Part shown: positions 7,370 to 53,404 of the stretch, in pieces
How positions within the stretch are numbered: position 1 is the stretch's first letter
Layout of the letters: every line of letters begins with the position of its first letter
Origin: Escherichia coli
GTDB taxonomy: Bacteria > Pseudomonadota > Gammaproteobacteria > Enterobacterales > Enterobacteriaceae
DNA length: 64,000 bases
Assembly (NCBI RefSeq): GCF_030384885.1
Contig: NZ_CP128613.1
Direction: 5' to 3' (one strand)
Position numbers and translations under genes: made by a program
The notes under the pieces: model-generated
The model's database searches: none
The model's input: the letters and a program-made list of their open reading frames with translations, nothing else
What the model was told of the DNA's origin: nothing

Positions 7370-9984
7370 GTATCCTGACCCGGTGGTTGCTTATCCCGCC
7401 GGTCAACGCGCGGCTTATCGGGCGTTATCGCGATTATCGTCGTCACGGCGCGTCGGCTTTCAGCGCGACGCTCGGCTGTTTTTGGTTGATCCTGGCCTGG
7501 ATTTTTATTCCGCTGGAGCACCCGCGCTGGCAGCGTATTCGCGCAGAACATAAAAACCTGTATCCGCATATCAACGCCTCGCGTCCGCGTCCGCTGGACC
7601 CGGTCCGTTATCTCATTCAAACATGCTGGTTACTGATCGGTACATCGCGCAAAGAAACGCCGAAACCGCGCAGGCGGACATTTTCAGGTCTGCAGAATAT
7701 TCGTGGACGTTACCATCAATGGATGAACGAGCTGCCTGAGCGCGTTAGCCATAAAACACAGCATCTCGATGAGAAAAAAGAACTCGGCCATTTGAGCGCC
7801 GGGGCGCGGCGGTTGATCCTCGGTATCATCGTCACCTTCTCGCTGATTCTGGCGTTAATCTGCGTTACCCAGCCGTTTAACCCGCTGGCGCAGTTTATCT
7901 TCCTGATGCTGCTGTGGGGTGTAGCGCTGATCGTACGGCGGATGCCGGGGCGCTTCTCGGCGCTAATGTTGATTGTGCTGTCGCTGACCGTTTCTTGCCG
8001 TTATATCTGGTGGCGCTACACCTCTACGCTGAACTGGGACGATCCGGTCAGTCTGGTGTGCGGGCTTATACTGCTGTTCGCTGAAACGTACGCGTGGATT
8101 GTGCTGGTGCTCGGCTACTTCCAGGTGGTATGGCCGCTGAATCGTCAGCCAGTACCGTTGCCGAAAGATATGTCGCTGTGGCCGTCGGTAGATATCTTTG
8201 TCCCGACTTACAACGAAGATCTCAACGTGGTGAAAAATACGATTTACGCCTCGCTGGGTATCGACTGGCCGAAAGACAAGCTGAACATCTGGATCCTCGA
8301 TGACGGCGGCAGGGAAGAGTTTCGCCAGTTTGCACAAAACGTGGGGGTGAAATATATCGCCCGTACCACTCATGAACATGCGAAAGCAGGCAACATCAAC
8401 AATGCGCTGAAATATGCCAAAGGCGAGTTCGTGTCGATTTTCGACTGCGACCACGTGCCGACGCGCTCATTCCTGCAAATGACCATGGGCTGGTTCCTGA
8501 AAGAAAAACAGTTGGCGATGATGCAGACGCCGCACCACTTCTTCTCACCGGATCCGTTTGAACGTAACTTGGGGCGTTTTCGTAAAACGCCAAACGAAGG
8601 CACGCTGTTTTATGGTCTGGTGCAGGACGGCAATGATATGTGGGATGCCACTTTCTTCTGCGGTTCCTGTGCGGTGATTCGTCGTAAGCCGCTGGATGAG
8701 ATTGGCGGCATTGCTGTCGAAACGGTAACCGAAGATGCGCATACTTCTCTGCGTTTGCACCGTCGTGGCTACACCTCTGCATATATGCGTATTCCGCAGG
8801 CGGCGGGGCTGGCGACCGAAAGTCTGTCGGCGCATATCGGTCAGCGTATTCGCTGGGCGCGCGGGATGGTGCAAATCTTCCGTCTCGATAACCCGCTCAC
8901 CGGTAAAGGGCTGAAGTTTGCTCAGCGGCTGTGCTACGTCAACGCCATGTTCCATTTCTTGTCGGGCATTCCACGACTGATCTTTCTGACTGCGCCGCTG
9001 GCGTTCCTGCTGCTGCATGCCTACATCATCTACGCGCCTGCGTTAATGATCGCTCTGTTTGTGCTGCCGCATATGATTCACGCCAGCCTGACCAACTCGA
9101 AGATTCAGGGTAAATATCGCCACTCTTTCTGGAGCGAAATCTACGAAACGGTACTGGCGTGGTATATCGCACCACCGACGCTGGTGGCGCTGATTAACCC
9201 GCACAAAGGCAAATTTAACGTCACCGCCAAAGGTGGACTGGTGGAAGAAGAGTACGTCGACTGGGTGATCTCACGGCCCTACATTTTCCTGGTATTGCTC
9301 AACCTGGTCGGTATTGCGGTCGGTATCTGGCGTTACTTCTACGGCCCGCCAACCGAGATGCTCACTGTCATCGTCAGTATGGTGTGGGTGTTCTACAACC
9401 TGATTATTCTCGGTGGTGCGGTAGCGGTATCGGTAGAAAGCAAACAGGTTCGCCGATCGCACCGCGTGGAGATGACGATGCCCGCGGCAATTGCCCGCGA
9501 AGATGGTCACCTCTTCTCGTGTACCGTTCAGGATTTCTCCGACGGTGGTTTGGGGATCAAGATCAACGGTCAGGCACAGATTCTGGAAGGGCAGAAAGTG
9601 AATCTGTTGCTTAAACGCGGTCAGCAAGAATACGTCTTCCCGGCCCAGGTGGCGCGCGTGATGGGTAATGAAGTTGGGCTGAAATTAATGCCGCTCACCA
9701 CCCAGCAACATATCGATTTTGTGCAGTGTACGTTTGCCCGTGCGGATACATGGGCGCTCTGGCAGGACAGCTATCCGGAAGATAAGCCGCTGGAAAGTCT
9801 GCTGGATATTCTGAAGCTCGGCTTCCGTGGCTACCGCCATCTGGCGGAGTTTGCGCCTTCTTCGGTGAAGGGCATATTCCGTGTGCTGACTTCTCTGGTT
9901 TCCTGGGTTGTATCGTTTATTCCGCGCCGCCCGGCGCGGAGCGAAACGGCACAACCATCGGATCAGGCTTTGGCTCAACAATGA
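7366..9984 (+). CDS. bcsA: Cellulose synthase catalytic subunit BcsA (872 aa, GT2 + PilZ)
   Basis: ATG at 7366 (MSILTRWLL...) overlapping bcsQ stop (ATGA); GT2 motifs (DDG, DCD, QTPH, QRIRW) and C-terminal PilZ. Confidence 0.95.
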   Translation: MSILTRWLLIPPVNARLIGRYRDYRRHGASAFSATLGCFWLILAWIFIPLEHPRWQRIRAEHKNLYPHINASRPRPLDPVRYLIQTCWLLIGTSRKETPKPRRRTFSGLQNIRGRYHQWMNELPERVSHKTQHLDEKKELGHLSAGARRLILGIIVTFSLILALICVTQPFNPLAQFIFLMLLWGVALIVRRMPGRFSALMLIVLSLTVSCRYIWWRYTSTLNWDDPVSLVCGLILLFAETYAWIVLVLGYFQVVWPLNRQPVPLPKDMSLWPSVDIFVPTYNEDLNVVKNTIYASLGIDWPKDKLNIWILDDGGREEFRQFAQNVGVKYIARTTHEHAKAGNINNALKYAKGEFVSIFDCDHVPTRSFLQMTMGWFLKEKQLAMMQTPHHFFSPDPFERNLGRFRKTPNEGTLFYGLVQDGNDMWDATFFCGSCAVIRRKPLDEIGGIAVETVTEDAHTSLRLHRRGYTSAYMRIPQAAGLATESLSAHIGQRIRWARGMVQIFRLDNPLTGKGLKFAQRLCYVNAMFHFLSGIPRLIFLTAPLAFLLLHAYIIYAPALMIALFVLPHMIHASLTNSKIQGKYRHSFWSEIYETVLAWYIAPPTLVALINPHKGKFNVTAKGGLVEEEYVDWVISRPYIFLVLLNLVGIAVGIWRYFYGPPTEMLTVIVSMVWVFYNLIILGGAVAVSVESKQVRRSHRVEMTMPAAIAREDGHLFSCTVQDFSDGGLGIKINGQAQILEGQKVNLLLKRGQQEYVFPAQVARVMGNEVGLKLMPLTTQQHIDFVQCTFARADTWALWQDSYPEDKPLESLLDILKLGFRGYRHLAEFAPSSVKGIFRVLTSLVSWVVSFIPRRPARSETAQPSDQALAQQ

Positions 9985-9994
9985 TGATAACGCG

Positions 9995-12334
9995 ATGAAA
10001 AGAAAACTATTCTGGATTTGTGCAGTGGCTATGGGGATGAGTGCGTTCCCCTCTTTCATGACGCAGGCGACGCCAGCAACGCAACCACTGATCAATGCTG
10101 AGCCAGCTGTAGCCGCCCAGACGGAACAAAATCCGCAGGTGGGGCAAGTGATGCCGGGCGTGCAGGGCGCTAATGCCCCCATCGTGGCGCAGAACGGTCC
10201 TTCGCGTGATGTGAAGCTGACCTTTGCGCAAATTGCGCCACCGCCGGGCAGCATGGTGCTACGTGGCATTAACCCGAACGGCAGCATTGAGTTTGGTATG
10301 CGCAGCGATGAAGTGGTGACGAAGGCGATGCTCAACCTCGAATACACGCCATCGCCATCGTTACTGCCTGTCCAGTCGCAGTTAAAGGTTTATCTCAATG
10401 ATGAACTGATGGGCGTGCTGCCAGTGACCAAAGAACAGTTGGGTAAAAAAACGCTGGCACAAATGCCAATTAACCCACTGTTTATTACCGACTTCAACCG
10501 TGTGCGGCTGGAGTTTGTCGGTCATTATCAGGACGTGTGCGAAAACCCGGCCAGCACCACGCTTTGGCTGGATGTTGGGCGGAGCAGTGGACTGGATCTG
10601 ACCTATCAGACCCTGAATGTGAAGAATGATCTGTCACACTTCCCGGTACCATTCTTTGACCCGCGTGATAACCGCACCAACACCTTGCCGATGGTCTTTG
10701 CGGGTGCGCCGGATGTTGGGCTGCAACAAGCATCTGCCATTGTCGCCTCGTGGTTTGGTTCGCGTTCTGGCTGGCGTGGGCAGAACTTCCCGGTGCTCTA
10801 TAACCAACTGCCGGATCGCAATGCCATCGTTTTTGCCACTAATGACAAACGCCCGGACTTCCTGCGCGATCATCCGGCGGTAAAAGCCCCGGTGATTGAG
10901 ATGATCAACCATCCACAGAATCCTTACGTCAAACTGCTGGTGGTCTTTGGTCGTGACGACAAAGACCTGTTGCAGGCAGCAAAAGGTATCGCTCAGGGTA
11001 ACATTCTGTTCCGTGGTGAAAGCGTGGTAGTGAATGAAGTAAAACCGCTGCTACCGCGTAAGCCGTACGATGCGCCGAACTGGGTGCGTACCGATCGCCC
11101 GGTCACCTTTGGTGAACTAAAAACCTATGAAGAACAGTTACAATCCAGCGGTCTTGAGCCAGCAGCGATTAACGTTTCGCTAAACCTGCCGCCGGATCTC
11201 TACCTGATGCGCAGTACCGGCATTGATATGGATATCAACTATCGCTACACCATGCCGCCGGTGAAAGACAGTTCGCGGATGGATATCAGCCTGAATAACC
11301 AGTTCCTGCAATCCTTCAACCTGAGCAGTAAACAGGAGGCGAACCGCCTGCTGCTGCGTATTCCGGTATTACAAGGTTTGCTGGATGGCAAAACGGATGT
11401 CTCTATTCCGGCGCTGAAACTGGGCGCGACCAACCAGTTGCGGTTCGACTTTGAGTATATGAACCCGATGCCGGGCGGTTCGGTGGATAACTGTATTACC
11501 TTCCAGCCGGTGCAGAATCATGTGGTGATTGGTGACGACTCCACCATCGACTTCTCGAAGTATTACCACTTCATCCCGATGCCGGATCTACGCGCCTTTG
11601 CTAACGCGGGCTTCCCGTTCAGCCGGATGGCGGATCTGTCACAAACCATCACCGTGATGCCGAAAGCGCCTAACGAAGCACAGATGGAAACCTTGCTGAA
11701 TACCGTTGGCTTTATCGGTGCGCAGACGGGCTTCCCGGCGATTAACCTGACGGTGACCGATGATGGCAGCACCATTCAGGGCAAAGATGCCGACATCATG
11801 ATCATCGGTGGTATCCCGGACAAACTGAAAGACGACAAGCAGATCGACCTGTTGGTGCAGGCGACCGAAAGCTGGGTGAAAACGCCGATGCGCCAGACCC
11901 CGTTCCCCGGCATTGTGCCGGACGAGAGCGATCGCGCGGCAGAAACTCAATCAACGCTGACCTCTTCCGGTGCGATGGCAGCGGTGATTGGCTTCCAGTC
12001 GCCGTATAACGACCAGCGTAGCGTGATTGCGCTGCTGGCAGATAGCCCACGCGGTTATGAAATGCTTAACGATGCGGTGAACGATAGCGGCAAACGCGCC
12101 ACCATGTTCGGCTCGGTCGCGGTGATCCGCGAGTCCGGTATCAATAGCCTGCGTGTTGGCGACGTCTATTACGTTGGCCATCTGCCGTGGTTCGAACGCT
12201 TATGGTATGCGCTGGCAAACCATCCGATTCTGCTGGCAGTGCTGGCGGCAATCAGCGTCGTGCTGCTGGCCTGGGTACTGTGGCGTTTGCTGCGTATTAT
12301 CAGCCGTCGTCGTCTTAACCCGGATAACGAGTAA
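9995..12334 (+). CDS. bcsB: Cellulose synthase periplasmic subunit BcsB (779 aa)
   Basis: ATG at 9995 (MKRKLFWICAVAMGMSA... signal peptide) within track ORF 9908..12334. Confidence 0.9.
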   Translation: MKRKLFWICAVAMGMSAFPSFMTQATPATQPLINAEPAVAAQTEQNPQVGQVMPGVQGANAPIVAQNGPSRDVKLTFAQIAPPPGSMVLRGINPNGSIEFGMRSDEVVTKAMLNLEYTPSPSLLPVQSQLKVYLNDELMGVLPVTKEQLGKKTLAQMPINPLFITDFNRVRLEFVGHYQDVCENPASTTLWLDVGRSSGLDLTYQTLNVKNDLSHFPVPFFDPRDNRTNTLPMVFAGAPDVGLQQASAIVASWFGSRSGWRGQNFPVLYNQLPDRNAIVFATNDKRPDFLRDHPAVKAPVIEMINHPQNPYVKLLVVFGRDDKDLLQAAKGIAQGNILFRGESVVVNEVKPLLPRKPYDAPNWVRTDRPVTFGELKTYEEQLQSSGLEPAAINVSLNLPPDLYLMRSTGIDMDINYRYTMPPVKDSSRMDISLNNQFLQSFNLSSKQEANRLLLRIPVLQGLLDGKTDVSIPALKLGATNQLRFDFEYMNPMPGGSVDNCITFQPVQNHVVIGDDSTIDFSKYYHFIPMPDLRAFANAGFPFSRMADLSQTITVMPKAPNEAQMETLLNTVGFIGAQTGFPAINLTVTDDGSTIQGKDADIMIIGGIPDKLKDDKQIDLLVQATESWVKTPMRQTPFPGIVPDESDRAAETQSTLTSSGAMAAVIGFQSPYNDQRSVIALLADSPRGYEMLNDAVNDSGKRATMFGSVAVIRESGINSLRVGDVYYVGHLPWFERLWYALANHPILLAVLAAISVVLLAWVLWRLLRIISRRRLNPDNE

Positions 12335-29734: not shown

Positions 29735-29804
29735 GCTGCCTCATTTTCTGCCTGGCTGGACTATCTTTAGGACTGGCACAGGAAGAAATATGAGGAAGCG
29801 AATG

Positions 29805-31865
29805 ATGAGCAAGGCAGGCAAAATAACCGCTGCGATTTCAGGGACTTTCTTGTTGTTGATTGTCGTGGCGATCATTTTGATTGCAACATTTGACTGGAAT
29901 CGACTCAAACCGACCATCAACCAGAAAGTCTCTGCGGAGTTGAATCGTCCATTCGCTATCCGTGGCGATCTGGGCGTGGTGTGGGAGCGGCAAAAACAAG
30001 AAACCGGCTGGCGCAGCTGGGTGCCGTGGCCTCATGTGCATGCAGAAGACATCATTCTTGGCAATCCGCCGGATATTCCCGAAGTAACAATGGTGCATTT
30101 GCCGCGGGTAGAAGCGACGCTGGCCCCGCTGGCGTTGCTGACCAAAACGGTCTGGCTGCCGTGGATAAAACTGGAGAAGCCCGACGCGCGTCTGATTCGT
30201 CTCTCTGAAAAGAACAATAACTGGACCTTTAATCTCGCCAATGATGACAACAAAGACATGAATGCAAAGCCGTCTGCGTGGTCGTTTCGACTGGATAATA
30301 TTCTGTTCGATCAAGGGCGGATCGCTATTGATGACAAAGTAAGCAAAGCGGATCTGGAAATTTTTGTCGATCCGTTAGGCAAGCCGCTGCCGTTCAGTGA
30401 AGTTACCGGATCGAAAGGTAAAGCGGACAAAGAAAAGGTGGGCGATTACGTTTTTGGTCTGAAGGCGCAGGGACGTTATAACGGTGAACCGCTCACGGGC
30501 AAAGGTAAAATCGGCGGTATGCTGGCACTACGCGGCGAAGGTACACCGTTTCCGGTACAGGCTGATTTCCGCTCCGGGAATACTCGCGTCGCTTTTGATG
30601 GCGTCGTGAATGACCCAATGAAGATGGGCGGTGTCGATTTACGGCTTAAATTTTCTGGCGATTCGCTGGGTGATCTCTATGAACTGACGGGCGTTCTGCT
30701 GCCCGATACCCCGCCGTTTGAAACGGATGGTCGGCTGGTAGCGAAAATCGACACTGAAAAATCGTCGGTCTTTGATTATCGCGGTTTTAATGGGCGCATT
30801 GGCGATAGCGATATCCACGGTTCTCTGGTCTACACCACCGGCAAGCCACGACCAAAACTGGAAGGTGATGTCGAATCGCGGCAATTGCGGCTGGCAGATT
30901 TAGGGCCATTGATTGGCGTTGATTCTGGAAAAGGTGCAGAAAAGTCGAAACGGTCTGAGCAGAAGAAAGGCGAAAAAAGCGTTCAGCCTGCGGGCAAAGT
31001 GCTGCCTTATGACCGCTTCGAAACCGATAAATGGGACGTCATGGATGCCGATGTCCGCTTCAAAGGTCGGCGCATTGAACATGGTAGTAGCTTGCCGATT
31101 AGCGATCTCTCTACCCATATCATTCTCAAAAATGCTGACCTGCGCCTGCAACCGCTGAAATTTGGCATGGCAGGCGGCAGCATTGCGGCGAATATTCATC
31201 TGGAAGGCGATAAAAAGCCGATGCAAGGGCGGGCTGATATTCAGGCGCGTCGGCTGAAACTCAAAGAACTGATGCCCGATGTAGAACTGATGCAGAAGAC
31301 GCTGGGGGAAATGAACGGTGACGCGGAACTACGCGGTAGCGGTAACTCGGTGGCGGCGCTTTTAGGCAACAGTAACGGCAACCTGAAACTGTTGATGAAT
31401 GACGGGCTGGTGAGCCGCAACCTGATGGAGATTGTCGGCCTGAATGTCGGCAACTACATTGTCGGTGCGATATTTGGTGATGATGAGGTGCGGGTGAACT
31501 GCGCGGCAGCGAATCTGGATATTGCCAACGGTGTAGCGCGTCCGCAGATTTTTGCTTTTGATACTGAGAATGCGTTGATCAATGTTACCGGCACGGCAAG
31601 TTTTGCTTCGGAGCAACTGGATTTGACTATCGATCCAGAAAGTAAAGGGATTCGGATTATCACACTGCGTTCGCCGCTGTATGTGCGTGGGACATTTAAA
31701 AATCCGCAGGCTGGGGTGAAAGCCGGACCGTTGATTGCTCGCGGAGCCGTCGCGGCGGCACTGGCAACGCTGGTAACACCGGCGGCGGCGTTACTGGCGC
31801 TGATCTCTCCTTCCGAAGGGGAGGCTAATCAGTGTCGGACGATTTTGTCGCAGATGAAGAAGTGA
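29805..31865 (+). CDS. yhjG: AsmA-family inner-membrane protein YhjG (686 aa)
   Basis: ATG at 29805 with gaggaag RBS; N-terminal TM anchor, long periplasmic domain. Confidence 0.85.
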   Translation: MSKAGKITAAISGTFLLLIVVAIILIATFDWNRLKPTINQKVSAELNRPFAIRGDLGVVWERQKQETGWRSWVPWPHVHAEDIILGNPPDIPEVTMVHLPRVEATLAPLALLTKTVWLPWIKLEKPDARLIRLSEKNNNWTFNLANDDNKDMNAKPSAWSFRLDNILFDQGRIAIDDKVSKADLEIFVDPLGKPLPFSEVTGSKGKADKEKVGDYVFGLKAQGRYNGEPLTGKGKIGGMLALRGEGTPFPVQADFRSGNTRVAFDGVVNDPMKMGGVDLRLKFSGDSLGDLYELTGVLLPDTPPFETDGRLVAKIDTEKSSVFDYRGFNGRIGDSDIHGSLVYTTGKPRPKLEGDVESRQLRLADLGPLIGVDSGKGAEKSKRSEQKKGEKSVQPAGKVLPYDRFETDKWDVMDADVRFKGRRIEHGSSLPISDLSTHIILKNADLRLQPLKFGMAGGSIAANIHLEGDKKPMQGRADIQARRLKLKELMPDVELMQKTLGEMNGDAELRGSGNSVAALLGNSNGNLKLLMNDGLVSRNLMEIVGLNVGNYIVGAIFGDDEVRVNCAAANLDIANGVARPQIFAFDTENALINVTGTASFASEQLDLTIDPESKGIRIITLRSPLYVRGTFKNPQAGVKAGPLIARGAVAAALATLVTPAAALLALISPSEGEANQCRTILSQMKK

Positions 31866-31872
31866 TGGAAAC

Positions 31873-31970
31873 TGCCGGATGCGGCGTGAACGCCTTATCC
31901 GGCCTACAAATCCTTGCGAATTCAATATATTTTATGGAAATTCAGGCCTGATAAGCGTAGCGCATCAGGC
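31873..31970. repeat. REP/BIME palindromic element
   Basis: gccggatgcggcgtgaacgccttatccggcctac and inverted partner aggcctgataagcgtagcgcatcaggc. Confidence 0.75.
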
Positions 31971-31982
31971 TTTTCACTCTTA

Positions 31983-33305
31983 TTACAACGACTGATGTCG
32001 CGTTTCATGGGTCAGCAGCAGGGCGATTAACGTCAAGCCAGCCATCGCCGCCAGATATAACCCCACCGCACCTAACCCGTAGTTAGTCTGCAACCAGGCT
32101 GCGATATATGGCGCAACGGAAGCCCCAAGAATCGACGATACGTTGTAAGAGAACGATGCTCCGGTGTAACGCACTTCTGTCGGGAACAGCTCTGGTAACA
32201 GCGCGCCCATCGGCCCGAAGGTCAGTCCCATCAGACTTAACCCCAGCAGCAGGAAGGCAAAAACCAGAATCGGGTTGCCAGAACCGAGCAGCGGGTTAAA
32301 GGCGAACAGCGCGAACAGGATGATCAGCGTGGTGATGATTACCATGCTTTTACGGCGACCAAAGGCATCAGCCAGTAATCCGGCGACTGGCACCATCACG
32401 CCAAAACCAATCACTGCCATCATCAGCATCCACAACACTTCGTTACGCGGCAGGCCAAGCCCAACTGGCGCGGCGGCGGTACTAAAGGTCATAGAGTAGA
32501 CCGTCATGATGTAAAACAGCGTATAGGTTGCCAGCATAATGAACGTACCCAGTACGGTTACGCGAACATGTTTGGTCAGCAGCGTACCCAGCGGGATCTT
32601 CACCTGTTTTTTCGCTTTAGCGACTTTCTCAAACACCGGCGACTCATGCAGCGATACGCGAACATACAGGCCGATAATGACCAGCACCGCCGAGAAGATA
32701 AATGGCACCCGCCAGCCCCAGCTCATAAACTGCTCGTCGGTCAGTAGCCAGGAAAGCAGTAAGAAAGTGCCGTTGGCAAAGAAGAAGCCAATCGGTGCGC
32801 CCAGCTGCGGGAAGGAGCCGTACAATGCACGTTTGCGCGGTGGTGCGTTCTCGGTTGCCAGCAGCGCCGCTCCGCCCCATTCGCCGCCTAAGCCCAGACC
32901 CTGACCAAATCGAGCCAGTGCCAGCAGCAGCGGGGCGAAAATACCAATCGTGGCATAGCCCGGCAGCAGACCAATCACCACGGTCGAAATCCCCATCGTT
33001 AGCAACGAGGCGACCAGCGTCGCTTTACGCCCAACGCGATCGCCAAAATGACCAAAGACGGCAGAGCCAATAGGGCGCGCGACGAAGGCGATGGCGAAGG
33101 TGGCAAGCGACTGTAGCGTTGCTGCCGTAGGATCACCCTGTGGGAAGAAGATATGCGGGAACACAATAACGGCTGCCGTTGCGTAAATATAGAAGTCGAA
33201 GAACTCAATGGCTGTACCGATGAGTGAGGCAACCAGAACTTTATTACGTGAGTTTACCGGCGTAAATTCCTGGTTATTTTCGAGTGTTGTGGCTGTTGCT
33301 TGCAT
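31983..33305 (-). CDS. yhjE: MFS transporter YhjE (440 aa)
   Basis: ORF track; 12-TM MFS-like sequence. Confidence 0.9.
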   Translation of the reverse strand: MQATATTLENNQEFTPVNSRNKVLVASLIGTAIEFFDFYIYATAAVIVFPHIFFPQGDPTAATLQSLATFAIAFVARPIGSAVFGHFGDRVGRKATLVASLLTMGISTVVIGLLPGYATIGIFAPLLLALARFGQGLGLGGEWGGAALLATENAPPRKRALYGSFPQLGAPIGFFFANGTFLLLSWLLTDEQFMSWGWRVPFIFSAVLVIIGLYVRVSLHESPVFEKVAKAKKQVKIPLGTLLTKHVRVTVLGTFIMLATYTLFYIMTVYSMTFSTAAAPVGLGLPRNEVLWMLMMAVIGFGVMVPVAGLLADAFGRRKSMVIITTLIILFALFAFNPLLGSGNPILVFAFLLLGLSLMGLTFGPMGALLPELFPTEVRYTGASFSYNVSSILGASVAPYIAAWLQTNYGLGAVGLYLAAMAGLTLIALLLTHETRHQSL

Positions 33306-33614
33306 AATCTTTTCTTATTTTTTGGCTAACGAATAGCCATATTACGCACAGCAAAAGTGATATTTCAATGTGTAACAAATCGCGGAGTTGGTCGAAAATC
33401 AGCCAAAAAGGGAATAATGTTTAAGCTGGTGATTTTTCTTCTATGAAATGCTTCACATAATTTCATAAATGGTGGATAAAACTGGTTTTAGGTTAAATAA
33501 AAGTTACCAACTGGATTTATATGCTGGAGTAATGAGTTGGAATGAAATTGTTTGCTCCTAAGAGATGACAGAAAAGGCTCTGGGGAAGAGTTTAAGTGGT
33601 TATGTGCGCATGAT

Positions 33615-33708
33615 AGCCGGATGCGATGCTGGCGCATTTTATCCGGCCTACGGGGAGCCAGGCCGAATAAATTCGTAGGCCGGATAAGGCGTTACGCTGC
33701 ATCCGGCA
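33615..33708. repeat. REP/BIME palindromic element pair
   Basis: agccggatgcg...atccggcctac and gtaggccggataaggcgttacgctgcatccggca. Confidence 0.75.
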
Positions 33709-33712
33709 TATT

Positions 33713-34726
33713 TTAAGACTGCGTTTTCCCCGGCATTCTCGGGTCGTCTTTGTATTCGGCGGTGGCAATCCACGCCGCGCAAAACAGCGTCAGACGAGCG
33801 AAGAAGTAGAAAAACGCCATCAGTCCCAGCACGGAGCCAAATGCTGCGCCAGACGGAGATTTCATCAGCGATGGCAGTGTGTAGGTCATCACGATTTTAA
33901 TCACTTCAAAACCTATAGCAGCAAGAAATGTTCCGCGAATTAGCGCTTTTTTGCGCGGACGGTGGCGCGGCAATCGCCAAAAGATCCAGAAGAAAAGCAG
34001 ATAGTTGGCGAAGATGGAAATCGCAAGACCAATCAACCGCCACGTTGGTTTCAGCCACTCAATGCTGTTCAGGTGCAGGGCGCTAATAATCATTTGCTGC
34101 GCCGAACCGGCAACCGAGGTGATCGAAAGCGTCACAATGAGCGCAATCAACAAACCAATCAGCGAAATAAAATCACGCAGATATTTAACCCAAAATTTTT
34201 CCTGATCCTGTGGCGAACGTTCCCAGACATCGCGCGATTGAGCGCGAATCGCTTCACGCAGGTTACCCATCCAGTTGATGCCGGAATAAAGCGCCACCGC
34301 CAGGCCGACAAGCCCTACCGTCGTACGCTGTTGAACGGCGGTATTGATGGTGTTTTTCAATGTAGCTGCCAGCGTCGGATCGCTAATATTTTGCAGAATT
34401 TTGTCGAAGATATCCTGCAGCAGCATCGGATGGGAGGCCAGAACGAAACCAGCGGCGGCAAACGACACCATCAAAATCGGAATCATCGACAAAAATGAGA
34501 AATAGGTGATAGCCGCACCAAACTGATTACCCAGCCGATCGTTAAAGCGTTCAGTCGCGCGAATCAGGTGCGCAATAATCGGTTGGCGTTGGACTTTTTC
34601 GGCAGTAGTGGTGACGGTTTCCAGCGCCTGGCTAACTTTGCCGCCTTTCTCGCTATTATCCAGCGGTTTAATCGGCTCGAGCTCCAGATCCTGGGTGGGA
34701 CGTTTAATCTCGTTTTCCTGCGTCAT
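33713..34726 (-). CDS. yhjD: Inner membrane protein YhjD (YihY/BrkB family, 337 aa)
   Basis: ORF track; multi-TM. Confidence 0.85.
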   Translation of the reverse strand: MTQENEIKRPTQDLELEPIKPLDNSEKGGKVSQALETVTTTAEKVQRQPIIAHLIRATERFNDRLGNQFGAAITYFSFLSMIPILMVSFAAAGFVLASHPMLLQDIFDKILQNISDPTLAATLKNTINTAVQQRTTVGLVGLAVALYSGINWMGNLREAIRAQSRDVWERSPQDQEKFWVKYLRDFISLIGLLIALIVTLSITSVAGSAQQMIISALHLNSIEWLKPTWRLIGLAISIFANYLLFFWIFWRLPRHRPRKKALIRGTFLAAIGFEVIKIVMTYTLPSLMKSPSGAAFGSVLGLMAFFYFFARLTLFCAAWIATAEYKDDPRMPGKTQS

Positions 34727-49720: not shown

Positions 49721-50518
49721 AACTTGCTCCTTAGCCGTTATCGTTTCGAACATGTCATCCTTTTCATTATTTACATCCCTGTCCGAATCGTTGTTCAATA
49801 TAGTAAACGCCTATAAGAACCTTGCCCTTCGTGAACTAATACGTCTATTAACACTAATCAATAATTCAGATTTATCCATCACGCACTCCATATATTGATC
49901 CTAAGTAAAATTCCTGGTTGTTATCAGATTGTAAACTGCAAACAAAAAATTAACGTTTGCGGATTACTGCCCAAGAATAAGTTATCAATAACCAGTTTGT
50001 GATCTCTGAAGAATATTACTAAAGTTAAAATGTAATCCGATTTAAATATCGAGTCTCCTTGTTTCGACTTAAGCTGGCAATTGGATTGCCAGCTTTCTTT
50101 TAACGCATTGAAATTACCTGAGTAAATAACTCATTCATGTCTTCAGGTTATTATATAGCGTCTGGAGACACGGATATTTATGCAATGTAATCAACGCCAA
50201 TTGCAAAAAAATGAACCCGGATTACTTATTTAACCGCCCATAGCATCAACGCCTACGGAACTCTTTGTTCACTTTCCCACAGCACTTTTAAAACATTAAA
50301 CCTGACTACGGAAAATATCAGCCATGATAATGTTTGAAATGGCTAATTTGCCATGCAATGAAAAAAATCAGATAAAATTCAGTAGGTTGAAATACTTATC
50401 AGCAGGTAATTATTTCAATGATAGCGCGCAATTGATCTAAAATGCTGTGTAGCGGAGAGAGTATTAATTGGATCATAGTCACATCAAGTGACTATGATCC
50501 AGGTGGCAATAGGGATAA
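49721..50518 (-). promoter_or_regulatory. Long AT-rich gadE upstream control region
   Basis: ~800 bp non-coding AT-rich tract between hdeD 3' end and gadE start; established knowledge that gadE has an extended multi-promoter regulatory region. Confidence 0.6.
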
Positions 50519-51091
50519 TTATTGCTTTTTAACAAACAAACTGGCGAAGCTGAACAGGCTAGCGGCGCTAAATATCAGTTCAATTCCCACTAGTGTGGAA
50601 ACCAGCGTTACAGAAACCATCGGCGTTGCGCCAAGGAATATCCAGGCAATGACGATATCCAGCACACCAATAACGAGCTGTAGCCAACTGCCTTTCATTG
50701 AACGCTGACGATACCAACTCATCAGACGAATAACTCCTGCCACACAGAACAAACCGGCAATAAATGCCGCAATGGCAAAAATGCCCAGCTCCGGTGCGCG
50801 GATGAAGAAATAGCCGATCAATAAATAGGCGATTGCGACGAGGAAACCGGATAATACAGGCCAGAAATTATGACTGCGGTTGCTGAATAACCCGACAATA
50901 AGCGCAATACCTGAGCAGATTAATAATGCACCCACTACTGTGCTTAAAATGTCGCCAGAGACGAACGGGAAACTGATACACAGCAACCCGACGATAAACA
51001 GCAGCACGGCAATAAACTGGATTGCTCTACGGTGCTTTTTAAGCATCTCCAGATCAAACTTCAAAATTGTTGCCTTATCTATATATAACAT
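50519..51091 (-). CDS. hdeD: Acid-resistance membrane protein HdeD (190 aa)
   Basis: ORF track; multi-TM. Confidence 0.9.
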   Translation of the reverse strand: MLYIDKATILKFDLEMLKKHRRAIQFIAVLLFIVGLLCISFPFVSGDILSTVVGALLICSGIALIVGLFSNRSHNFWPVLSGFLVAIAYLLIGYFFIRAPELGIFAIAAFIAGLFCVAGVIRLMSWYRQRSMKGSWLQLVIGVLDIVIAWIFLGATPMVSVTLVSTLVGIELIFSAASLFSFASLFVKKQ

Positions 51092-51345
51092 ATAACCACC
51101 CTATAAAATTAAGAAGAAAATCCCCTGCTATCAATCTATGCCAAAAACGCGTCTAAGAATGCAGTCGATTTAATAAAAATTTCCTAATTACAGTATCTGA
51201 TGCATCTGTAACTCATTGTATTGAAATAAAAATATCTGATTTTGATATTTTCCATCAACATGACATATACAGAAAACCAGGTTATAACCTCAGTGTCGAA
51301 ATTAATTCGTGACGGCTCTTTCACTTTATAGTTGAGGATATTACG

Positions 51346-51678
51346 ATGAAAAAAGTATTAGGCGTTATTCTTGGTGGTCTGCTTCTTCTGCCAGTGGTGA
51401 GCAATGCAGCGGATGCACAAAAAGCAGCTGATAACAAAAAACCGGTCAACACCTGGACCTGTGAAGATTTTCTGGCTGTGGACGAATCCTTCCAGCCAAC
51501 TGCAGTTGGTTTTGCTGAAGCACTGAACAATAAAGATAAACCAGAAGATGCGGTTTTAGATGTTCAGGGTATTGCAACCGTAACCCCAGCGATCGTTCAG
51601 GCTTGTACTCAGGATAAACAAGCCAACTTTAAAGATAAAGTTAAAAGCGAATGGGACAAAGTTAAGAAAGATATGTAA
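51346..51678 (+). CDS. hdeA: Periplasmic acid stress chaperone HdeA (110 aa)
   Basis: ORF track; signal peptide; aggata RBS. Confidence 0.95.
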   Translation: MKKVLGVILGGLLLLPVVSNAADAQKAADNKKPVNTWTCEDFLAVDESFQPTAVGFAEALNNKDKPEDAVLDVQGIATVTPAIVQACTQDKQANFKDKVKSEWDKVKKDM

Positions 51679-51793
51679 TTCCGGGAATACGTTACATCGT
51701 ACTTCCTTGCATATTGAACAGGTAGGAATACCTTCTTCAAAAGCAGCTATTCCTTCTGTTCATATTTAATCTCTATATTGAATGGGTTACAAA

Positions 51794-52120
51794 ATGAATA
51801 TTTCATCTCTCCGTAAAGCGTTTATTTTTATGGGCGCTGTAGCGGCTTTGTCACTGGTGAACGCACAATCTGCGCTGGCAGCCAATGAATCCGCTAAAGA
51901 TATGACTTGCCAGGAATTTATTGATCTGAATCCAAAAGCAATGACACCGGTTGCGTGGTGGATGCTGCATGAAGAAACAGTTTATAAAGGTGGTGATACT
52001 GTTACTTTAAATGAAACCGATCTTACTCAAATTCCTAAAGTGATCGAATACTGCAAAAAAAATCCGCAGAAAAATTTGTATACTTTCAAAAATCAAGCAT
52101 CTAATGACTTGCCGAATTAA
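51794..52120 (+). CDS. hdeB: Periplasmic acid stress chaperone HdeB (108 aa)
   Basis: ATG at 51794 (MNISSLRKAFIFMGAVAALSLVNA...) within track ORF 51782..52120. Confidence 0.9.
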   Translation: MNISSLRKAFIFMGAVAALSLVNAQSALAANESAKDMTCQEFIDLNPKAMTPVAWWMLHEETVYKGGDTVTLNETDLTQIPKVIEYCKKNPQKNLYTFKNQASNDLPN

Positions 52121-52183
52121 TGGGGCACAAGTAAAAAGGAGTAGCAAGTTGAGCCATCTTGCTGCTCCTTTTTGCATTTTTAT

Positions 52184-52831
52184 ATGACAGCAGAATTTAT
52201 TATACGTCTTATACTCGCAGCAATTGCCTGTGGCGCTATTGGCATGGAAAGGCAAATGCGCGGCAAAGGAGCAGGGTTACGCACACATGTATTAATTGGC
52301 ATGGGAAGCGCCCTGTTTATGATTGTTTCGAAATATGGTTTTGCTGACGTGCTGTCTTTAGATCACGTCGGACTGGACCCCAGCCGTATTGCTGCTCAGG
52401 TGGTGACGGGCGTCGGGTTTATCGGTGCAGGTAACATTCTCGTTCGTAACCAAAATATTGTGGGTCTGACGACGGCAGCCGATATCTGGGTGACTGCGGC
52501 TATTGGTATGGTGATTGGCAGCGGTATGTATGAGCTGGGCATTTATGGTTCAGTAATGACCTTGCTGGTGCTGGAAGTCTTCCATCAATTAACCTTCCGC
52601 CTGATGAATAAAAATTACCATTTACAGCTGACATTAGTGAACGGTAATACGGTATCAATGCTCGACTGGTTTAAGCAGCAAAAAATAAAAACGGATTTAG
52701 TTTCGTTGCAGGAAAATGAAGATCATGAAGTGGTCGCCATTGATATCCAGCTTCATGCCACGACGTCGATAGAAGATCTGTTGCGATTATTAAAAGGTAT
52801 GGCAGGGGTGAAAGGCGTTTCAATTAGCTAA
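52184..52831 (+). CDS. yhiD: MgtC-family inner membrane protein YhiD (215 aa)
   Basis: ATG at 52184 (MTAEFIIRLILAAIACGAIGMERQ...) - MgtC/SapB signature. Confidence 0.9.
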   Translation: MTAEFIIRLILAAIACGAIGMERQMRGKGAGLRTHVLIGMGSALFMIVSKYGFADVLSLDHVGLDPSRIAAQVVTGVGFIGAGNILVRNQNIVGLTTAADIWVTAAIGMVIGSGMYELGIYGSVMTLLVLEVFHQLTFRLMNKNYHLQLTLVNGNTVSMLDWFKQQKIKTDLVSLQENEDHEVVAIDIQLHATTSIEDLLRLLKGMAGVKGVSIS

Positions 52832-52873
52832 TCTGTGTGGTAGCGAAATCACACTCGCCACCCTACTGGAAAT

Positions 52874-53404
52874 TCACACCAGATAATCAATATGCTGATG
52901 GCGTACCAACTCATTGATCCGCTTAAGATTGAGGATCATCATGATATTGTGTTTATGGCAGTAGAACGTTTTTAGCGATATTTTCAGTTTCTCCAGAATA
53001 TCTTCCGTTGTCATTTGATTCGCAATACAGCTTAGAACCTGATGCTGCTTGCGCGAAAGGGACACATCCGCTTCAGGCACAGAGCAGTAACTGCCATTGA
53101 TGAGTGCGACAAAGTCGATGATGGTGATAGTTCGCGGAACAAAGGTCACCGGTACTTTCCCCAGGCAGCGTTTAATATTAAAGGGAGAGAAAATAATCAC
53201 ATGGACAGGTTTTAATCGTTCAATCTGAGTGAGCAAATTAGAATGAAATACATTATTCATTAATGTATCAATAATGACGAAGGCATGCTGATGCAACATT
53301 ACGTCGATCTCTTCTTCGTTCTGTATATGAACGACATTACCTTTGCTCAGAATGTTTTTCATCGCAGTGAAGAACATCGTATCCCTGGTAATTATAAGAA
53401 ACAT
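52874..53404 (-). CDS. dctR: LuxR-family regulator DctR/YhiF (176 aa)
   Basis: ORF track; C-terminal LuxR HTH. Confidence 0.9.
   Translation of the reverse strand: MFLIITRDTMFFTAMKNILSKGNVVHIQNEEEIDVMLHQHAFVIIDTLMNNVFHSNLLTQIERLKPVHVIIFSPFNIKRCLGKVPVTFVPRTITIIDFVALINGSYCSVPEADVSLSRKQHQVLSCIANQMTTEDILEKLKISLKTFYCHKHNIMMILNLKRINELVRHQHIDYLV

Follow-up and report, generated by a model that had tools for sequence, protein, structure and literature searches.

Four REP palindromes forming two BIMEs flank yhjE in a minority lineage of Escherichia coli

The BIME-1 repeats of Escherichia coli have also been described as RIB/RIP elements. By the published definition, a BIME-1 joins a y and a z1 REP through a long, conserved L linker, frequently with an IHF site, and occurs as a single copy, and BIME-2 is described as a y and a z2 REP with a short linker in multiple tandem copies (PMC3333891). 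The L linker belongs to an IHF-binding class (PMC3333891, PMC2817692), and y/z2 pairs are preferred, transcription-independent gyrase sites, with gyrase cleavage enriched in BIME-2 (PMC6379681). The REP-associated transposase (RAYT/TnpA-REP) requires a GTAG foot and a mismatch in the REP stem (PMC3333891, PMC3479197), and variability of BIMEs between strains has been described (PMC3333891). PMC12306157 summarises Liang, Rudd and Deutscher 2015 as reporting that ribosomes stall and translation is reduced when a REP lies no more than 15 nt from a stop codon.

The window analysed here, a 64-kb stretch of E. coli DNA, contains the yhjG / yhjE / yhjD / rcdB region, as identified from its open reading frame listing and by comparison with annotated E. 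coli genomes, and the identities of yhjG, yhjE and yhjD agree with the RefSeq annotation of matching records (Table 1). The whole window was scanned with the REP stem pattern GCC[GT]GAT[GA]...[TC]ATC[CA]GGC and by blastn-short. The stem pattern revealed exactly four REP palindromes in the 64 kb, all within the two spacers that border yhjE; the head motif GCC[GT]GATGC[GA] had four matches, confined to the same four sites, and the tail motif ATCCGGCCTAC occurred exactly three times, again only at REP sites. All four elements are extragenic, lying between the annotated coding regions of yhjG, yhjE and yhjD, and the MG1655 RefSeq record has no repeat_region features annotated at this locus. They form two pairs, pair 1 between yhjG and yhjE, and pair 2 just past the yhjD stop codon, ahead of the yhjE promoter region and approximately 300 bp upstream of the yhjE start. 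A sequence-only reading of this DNA had proposed canonical REPs in both intergenic regions around yhjE, spanning 31873-33708, as the source of the repeated motifs at 31.9 and 33.6 kb, with a REP-consensus pattern search as the check. That search and blastn-short matched all four elements, pair 1 and pair 2 lie where the repeated motifs had been seen, and the boundaries agree (REP-a starting at 31873/31874 and REP-d ending at 33707).

Table 1. Genes, spacers and repeat features around yhjE, with positions numbered from the first nucleotide of the 64-kb window
Feature	Position	Strand	Length	Details
yhjG	29790-31865	+		stop TGA 31863-31865
yhjG-yhjE spacer	31866-31982		117 bp	flanking genes convergent
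Putative 64-bp deletion junction (relative to K-12)	31866-31882	+		two TGCCGGATG direct repeats
Pair 1 (REP-a, linker, REP-b)	31874-31970			BIME-1 by architecture; tail to tail
REP-a, y-type	31874-31907	+		GCCGGATGCGGCGTGAACGCCTTATCCGGCCTAC; 34/34 to y consensus, blastn-short E 6e-15
L linker	31908-31943		36 nt	AAATCCTTGCGAATTCAATATATTTTATGGAAATTC; joins REP-a and REP-b tails
IHF-like core	31920-31932	+		ATTCAATATATTT; 11/13 to WATCAANNNNTTR
REP-b, short CCTGAT-type	31944-31970	-		GCCTGATGCGCTACGCTTATCAGGCCT; 27/27 to short Z consensus, E 7e-11
yhjE (transporter gene)	31983-33305	-		stop TAA 31985-31983
yhjE-yhjD spacer	33306-33712		407 bp	flanking genes co-directional
Promoter-like site of yhjE	33368-33339	-		consensus scan
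Pair 2 (REP-c, linker, REP-d)	33616-33707			tail to tail
REP-c, long REP	33616-33651	+		GCCGGATGCGATGCTGGCGCATTTTATCCGGCCTAC; matches unlinked long REPs
Short S-type linker	33652-33674		23 nt	GGGGAGCCAGGCCGAATAAATTC
Partial REP-tail duplicate	33660-33670			AGGCCGAATAA; within the pair-2 linker
REP-d, y-type	33675-33707	-		GCCGGATGCAGCGTAACGCCTTATCCGGCCTAC; 32/34 to y consensus, E 8e-8
yhjD	33713-34726	-		stop TAA 33715-33713

The four elements are almost certainly copies of the E. coli REP (palindromic unit), arranged as two BIMEs flanking yhjE, and this is the best explanation overall. The REP consensus strings used for the comparison (Table 1) were afterwards compared with 121 copies of the family. 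The elements measure 27-36 nt, with inverted-repeat arms that are 76-86% complementary and loops of variable length; REP-a has 14-nt arms and an intact GTAG foot on the minus strand. This foot (GTAG/CTAC) is kept in three of the four elements (REP-a, REP-c and REP-d) and reads TCAG in REP-b. The motif earlier quoted for the group, gccggatgcg...atccggcctac, is exact in REP-a and REP-c and has a single mismatch in REP-d, but does not hold for REP-b, which is of the CCTGAT type and has no CTAC/GTAG foot. Both the 117-bp spacer and a 103-bp pair-2 segment occurred at a median of at least 40 places per genome in 5,425 of 5,426 complete E. coli genomes. Consensus match and high dispersed copy number together place these elements far beyond chance palindromes, and neither of the two observations that would speak against family identity, a unique or low copy number and a mismatch to the consensus, occurred. 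REP/BIME repeats around yhjE are already known biology and ordinary, with nothing new in their presence.

By its architecture, pair 1 is a BIME-1, composed of a y REP, an L linker and a short z1-type REP, REP-b being termed z1 in the nomenclature of PMC3333891. As in the described BIME-1 elements, the y and short CCTGAT-type REPs are inversely oriented, the 36-nt linker is homologous, and the unit is present as a single copy, with no tandem repetition, at the 3' ends of transcription units. Unlinked copies at cmoB-torZ, sbp-pfkA and ysaA-avtA can be aligned with pair 1 over its full length. The linker with a 9-nt REP tail on each side is dispersed (median of 13 places per genome), and an exact 53-nt linker query (100% identity) retrieved 16 records only. 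An exact-pattern scan of one genome per species recovered 109 stretches with the y / linker / short-REP architecture, hosted by E. coli, E. albertii, E. whittamii, Escherichia sp. E1V33 and Pseudocitrobacter; contamination appears to account for a few matches located on MAG contigs or very short contigs that bear the names of unrelated organisms. A family consensus was built from 121 copies extracted from the fetched loci (Escherichia and Pseudocitrobacter), and pair 1 aligns with this consensus, the family linkers being 35-38 nt long. None of the 109 loci taken from other Escherichia and Pseudocitrobacter genomes included an orthologous yhjG-yhjE spacer.

Unlike the BIME-1 family, pair 1 has an IHF-like core ending in TTT, a z1 foot reading TCAG and neither of the conserved flanks. 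The core ends in TTG in K-12 and in TTR in 118 of the 121 family copies, none of which carries TTT, and its two mismatches to WATCAANNNNTTR correspond to a level expected approximately 11 times per kb by chance; as judged by these bases, the IHF-like core is degenerate in the lineage of the window. The REP-b foot is GTAG in 119 of 121 family copies, and in its present sequence REP-b lacks this tetranucleotide, on which recognition by RAYT depends. K-12 has the conserved left flank AAAGTGCGCTTTGTTCA, which is missing from the window because of an apparent 64-bp deletion (see below), and the right-flank consensus of the 121 copies is absent from the BIME-1 of the window.

Pair 2, which corresponds to approximately 3,674,380-3,674,480 in K-12, is classed here as a single BIME-2-type unit and could equally be labelled a minimal or atypical BIME. 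Like BIME-2, it has a y REP joined tail to tail to a long REP by a short linker; unlike BIME-2, it consists of one unit only, both in the window and in all aligned strains. From the association with a short linker and the class definitions of PMC3333891, we infer that REP-c is of the z2 type. Units with the composition of pair 2 are also found at loiP-speB, malQ-gntT and ybhJ-ybhC, and their linkers share a GCCGAA(Y)C motif before GTAG. The pair-2 linker differs from these paralogous linkers, which are shorter, by its 23-nt length and by the duplicated partial REP tail, which is seen as direct repeat D3 (AGGCCGAATAA / AGGCCGGATAA).

All four REPs fold as stable hairpins with internal mismatches on both strands (-13.4 to -21.3 kcal/mol, z -3.3 to -4.9), the individual values being -21.3 kcal/mol (z -4.9) for REP-a, -13.4 kcal/mol (z -3.8) for REP-b, -18.4 kcal/mol for REP-c and -15.9 kcal/mol for REP-d. 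Each whole spacer also gives a more stable fold than shuffled sequences do (z -3.8 to -5.1). REP-a starts 8 nt past the yhjG stop, REP-b 12 nt past the yhjE stop and REP-d 5 nt past the yhjD stop, and these three elements, starting less than 15 nt from a stop codon, thus lie within the published distance for ribosome stalling. As RNA, G+C-rich REP hairpins would be located at the 3' ends of the yhjG, yhjE and yhjD transcripts, where they would block 3'-to-5' exonucleases and thereby define and stabilise mRNA 3' ends; they could also attenuate read-through, for example from yhjD into yhjE, and those close to stop codons may hold back ribosomes at termination and reduce the amount of protein made. 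As DNA, the L linker of pair 1 would represent the class of site bound by IHF, and pair 2, as a y/z2 pair, would represent a preferred gyrase site. The proposal that the repeats bind gyrase and IHF may thus hold by class for one pair each (IHF for pair 1, gyrase for pair 2), and not for both pairs. The gyrase-site supplement of PMC6379681 makes no mention of yhjD, yhjE or yhjG, the supplements of PMC12306157 and PMC3333891 contain nothing on these genes, and the IHF ChIP literature yielded no useful entry on the yhjG-yhjE-yhjD locus.

Comparison between strains places the window in a minority lineage of E. coli: for two other 3-kb segments of it, identity reaches 99% or more in only 4-5 of approximately 5,400 genomes and is 95-99% in the rest, and local identity between the window and K-12 ranges from 91 to 99%. 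In K-12 and the majority of strains sampled, REP-a is separated from the yhjG stop codon by an additional 64 bp, which comprise a small yhjG-proximal hairpin (GCCGGATGTCTGACATCCGGC) and the BIME-1 left flank. The form in the window looks, from the alignment, like a deletion between two TGCCGGATG direct repeats; it places REP-a directly after yhjG, and its junction is present in 18 of 5,426 genomes. In 1,468 of the 5,426 genomes (~27%), the yhjG-yhjE spacer is filled by an unrelated 233-bp sequence, which carries box-C-like G/C-rich palindromes and replaces both BIME-1 and the 64-bp segment. Pair 2 also varies, with a 19-bp deletion in REP-d in ST131 and BP0083 and a box-C-like element in place of the whole pair in CFSAN061771 and T-HYM1. 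The non-REP spacer in ~27% of genomes, together with the loss or truncation of pair 2 in some strains, indicates that E. coli can dispense with any function the repeats may have at this locus.

Both spacers are hotspots of repeat turnover, in which BIMEs, a box-C-like element and small deletions alternate between E. coli lineages.

Strong hairpins at the 3' ends of three genes, and the presence of TTTTCACTC after the REP-b hairpin on the plus strand, are also what would be seen if the elements were intrinsic or bidirectional terminators of transcription specific to these genes, with no more than a resemblance to REPs. This is highly improbable, as sequences found at 40 or more places per genome and matching the REP consensus exactly are not gene-specific. 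In addition, no proper U-tract follows any REP hairpin on the relevant mRNA strands, and a consensus terminator scan assigned no terminator-like site at the REPs to any of the three transcripts (yhjG, yhjE, yhjD), being empty at REP-a, REP-b and REP-d; its sole match within a REP was a partial REP-c stem on the plus strand, which is not the yhjD mRNA strand. Copy number and the missing U-tract refute a gene-specific terminator identity. A nucleoid-associated small RNA of the naRNA4 (REP325-derived) kind is suggested by weak matches to Rfam RF02564 at 31868-31904 (38.4 bits), 33678-33748, 31834-31904 and 33612-33647, with which the elements share the REP hairpin sequence. The scores (27.6-38.4 bits) are all far under the 59.5-bit gathering threshold, so the elements are not members by score, and the matches span the REP hairpin only, as expected since naRNA4 itself derives from a REP cluster. 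Each site here has two REPs as opposed to a long REP array, and the consensus scan detected no promoter-like site adjoining the REPs, the one found for yhjE being distant from them (Table 1). That these elements encode such an RNA is barely conceivable, and a naRNA4-like small RNA gene was rejected on the sub-threshold Rfam score.

Spread and reshuffling by the REP-associated transposase (RAYT/TnpA-REP) would account for the origin of the elements, and the presence, absence and deletion variation between strains at both spacers fits such an origin. As in REPIN / RAYT systems, pairs 1 and 2 are both inverted REP doublets, and the GTAG foot together with the stem mismatch is found in three of the four; REP-b departs from those systems in having no GTAG. 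The RAYT gene (yafM in K-12) is absent from the window, and its position in K-12 is far outside this 64-kb region. It is conceivable, if rather unlikely, that the REPs are selfish or neutral passengers, inserted and reshuffled by RAYT in permissive intergenic spots and changing neither local chromosome structure nor the expression of yhjG, yhjE or yhjD. The high polymorphism of both spacers (BIME-1 replaced, pair 2 replaced or truncated, 64 bp deleted) and the degeneration of the REP-b foot and the IHF-like core favour a passenger status. Against it, the REP stems are perfectly conserved between the window and K-12 (REP-a being the same throughout) despite a 5-8% divergence of the flanking genes, and the REPs lie 5-12 nt from three stop codons, exactly the position at which REPs have been reported to affect mRNA decay and translation. 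A passenger status is compatible with the REP family assignment and differs from the proposed roles on local function only.

With the elements taken as REP copies forming two BIMEs, the spacer variants provide natural alleles for the effect of REP-to-stop distance or L-linker integrity on expression. There is a slight chance that, through the 64-bp deletion and the TTG to TTT change, this lineage departs from mainstream E. coli in yhjG/yhjE 3'-end processing, stop-proximal ribosome stalling or IHF occupancy; if true, the lineage of the window would itself be a natural allele with which to test REP position effects. Labelling the two repeat clusters also avoids mistaking them for yhjE-specific regulators, small RNA genes or terminators.

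Compared with K-12 and most strains, 64 bp are missing from the stretch of the window that separates the stop codon of yhjG from the y-type REP of the BIME-1 pair (REP-a). Among 5,426 complete E. coli genomes, only 18 have this short junction. The 64-bp K-12 segment, which contains a small perfect hairpin and the left flank of BIME-1, is bordered by two TGCCGGATG direct repeats. Mechanical calling of the adjacent yhjG open reading frame gave 691 aa compared with 686 aa (2,061-bp gene) in the RefSeq annotations, a difference that probably reflects only start codon choice.

The repeats on both sides of yhjE vary between strains. The BIME-1 of the yhjG-yhjE spacer is missing from 1,468 of the 5,426 genomes, and the spacer there is a 233-bp sequence (as in strain 10153) that carries box-C-like, G/C-rich palindromes (CCCTCACCCTAACCCTCTCCCC...GGGGCGAGGGG); its inner part of ~50 bp recurs at dispersed positions (median of 5 per genome). 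A box-C-like element likewise stands in place of the BIME-2-type unit of the yhjE-yhjD spacer in CFSAN061771 and T-HYM1. ST131-type strains have a 3-bp deletion in REP-a, and a 19-bp deletion in the yhjE-yhjD pair, shared by ST131 and BP0083, joins the partial REP tail of the linker to the remaining half of REP-d. The sole sigma-70-like promoter match of the region (TTGAAA, 18-nt spacer, TAATAT) precedes the start codon of yhjE by 34 nt and is located within the A+T-rich, non-REP part of the spacer (34% G+C).

Coordinates of features in the window and at comparison loci (L-numbers) of other genomes
Feature	Genome	Coordinates	Strand
yhjG ORF	window	29790-31865	+
Short yhjG-REP junction	window	31866-31882	
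Sigma-70-like match	window	33339-33368	-
Locus compared for the 64-bp segment	K-12	L001:5110-5290	
Replacement yhjG-yhjE spacer	10153	L004:467-699	
Box-C-like element, yhjE-yhjD	CFSAN061771, T-HYM1	L006:2195-2371, L008:4160-4337	
Pair with 19-bp deletion	ST131	L003:2195-2372	
IS4 transposase gene	RMDEC465	L002:8112-8200	

Exact BIME-1 matches also turn up on very short contigs assigned to Desulfosporosinus, Methylobacterium frigidaeris and Alkalicoccobacillus, as well as on Collinsella MAG contigs (L027, L084 and L085, contigs of ~260 bp, and L081-L083); the matches in these assemblies most likely represent Escherichia contamination. For NZ_CP026085.1, labelled DH5alpha and, at 4.83 Mb, larger than a typical DH5alpha genome, the top L-linker match was the paralogous BIME-1 at cmoB-torZ (81.5%) rather than yhjG-yhjE, which is unexpected for a K-12 derivative. 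In RMDEC465, the closest relative of the window, an IS4 transposase gene lies directly past yhjB.

Identity to other genomes was checked at three segments of the window (8000-11000, 31700-33900 and 50000-53000). Only 4-6 complete genomes, including 2013C-4282, RMDEC465, 2017-02-2CC and EC42405, show at least 99% identity; the bulk of E. coli is ~95-97% identical, and yhjG and yhjD share only 91-95% identity with K-12. The window belongs to a minority E. coli lineage, which may be cryptic-clade-like.
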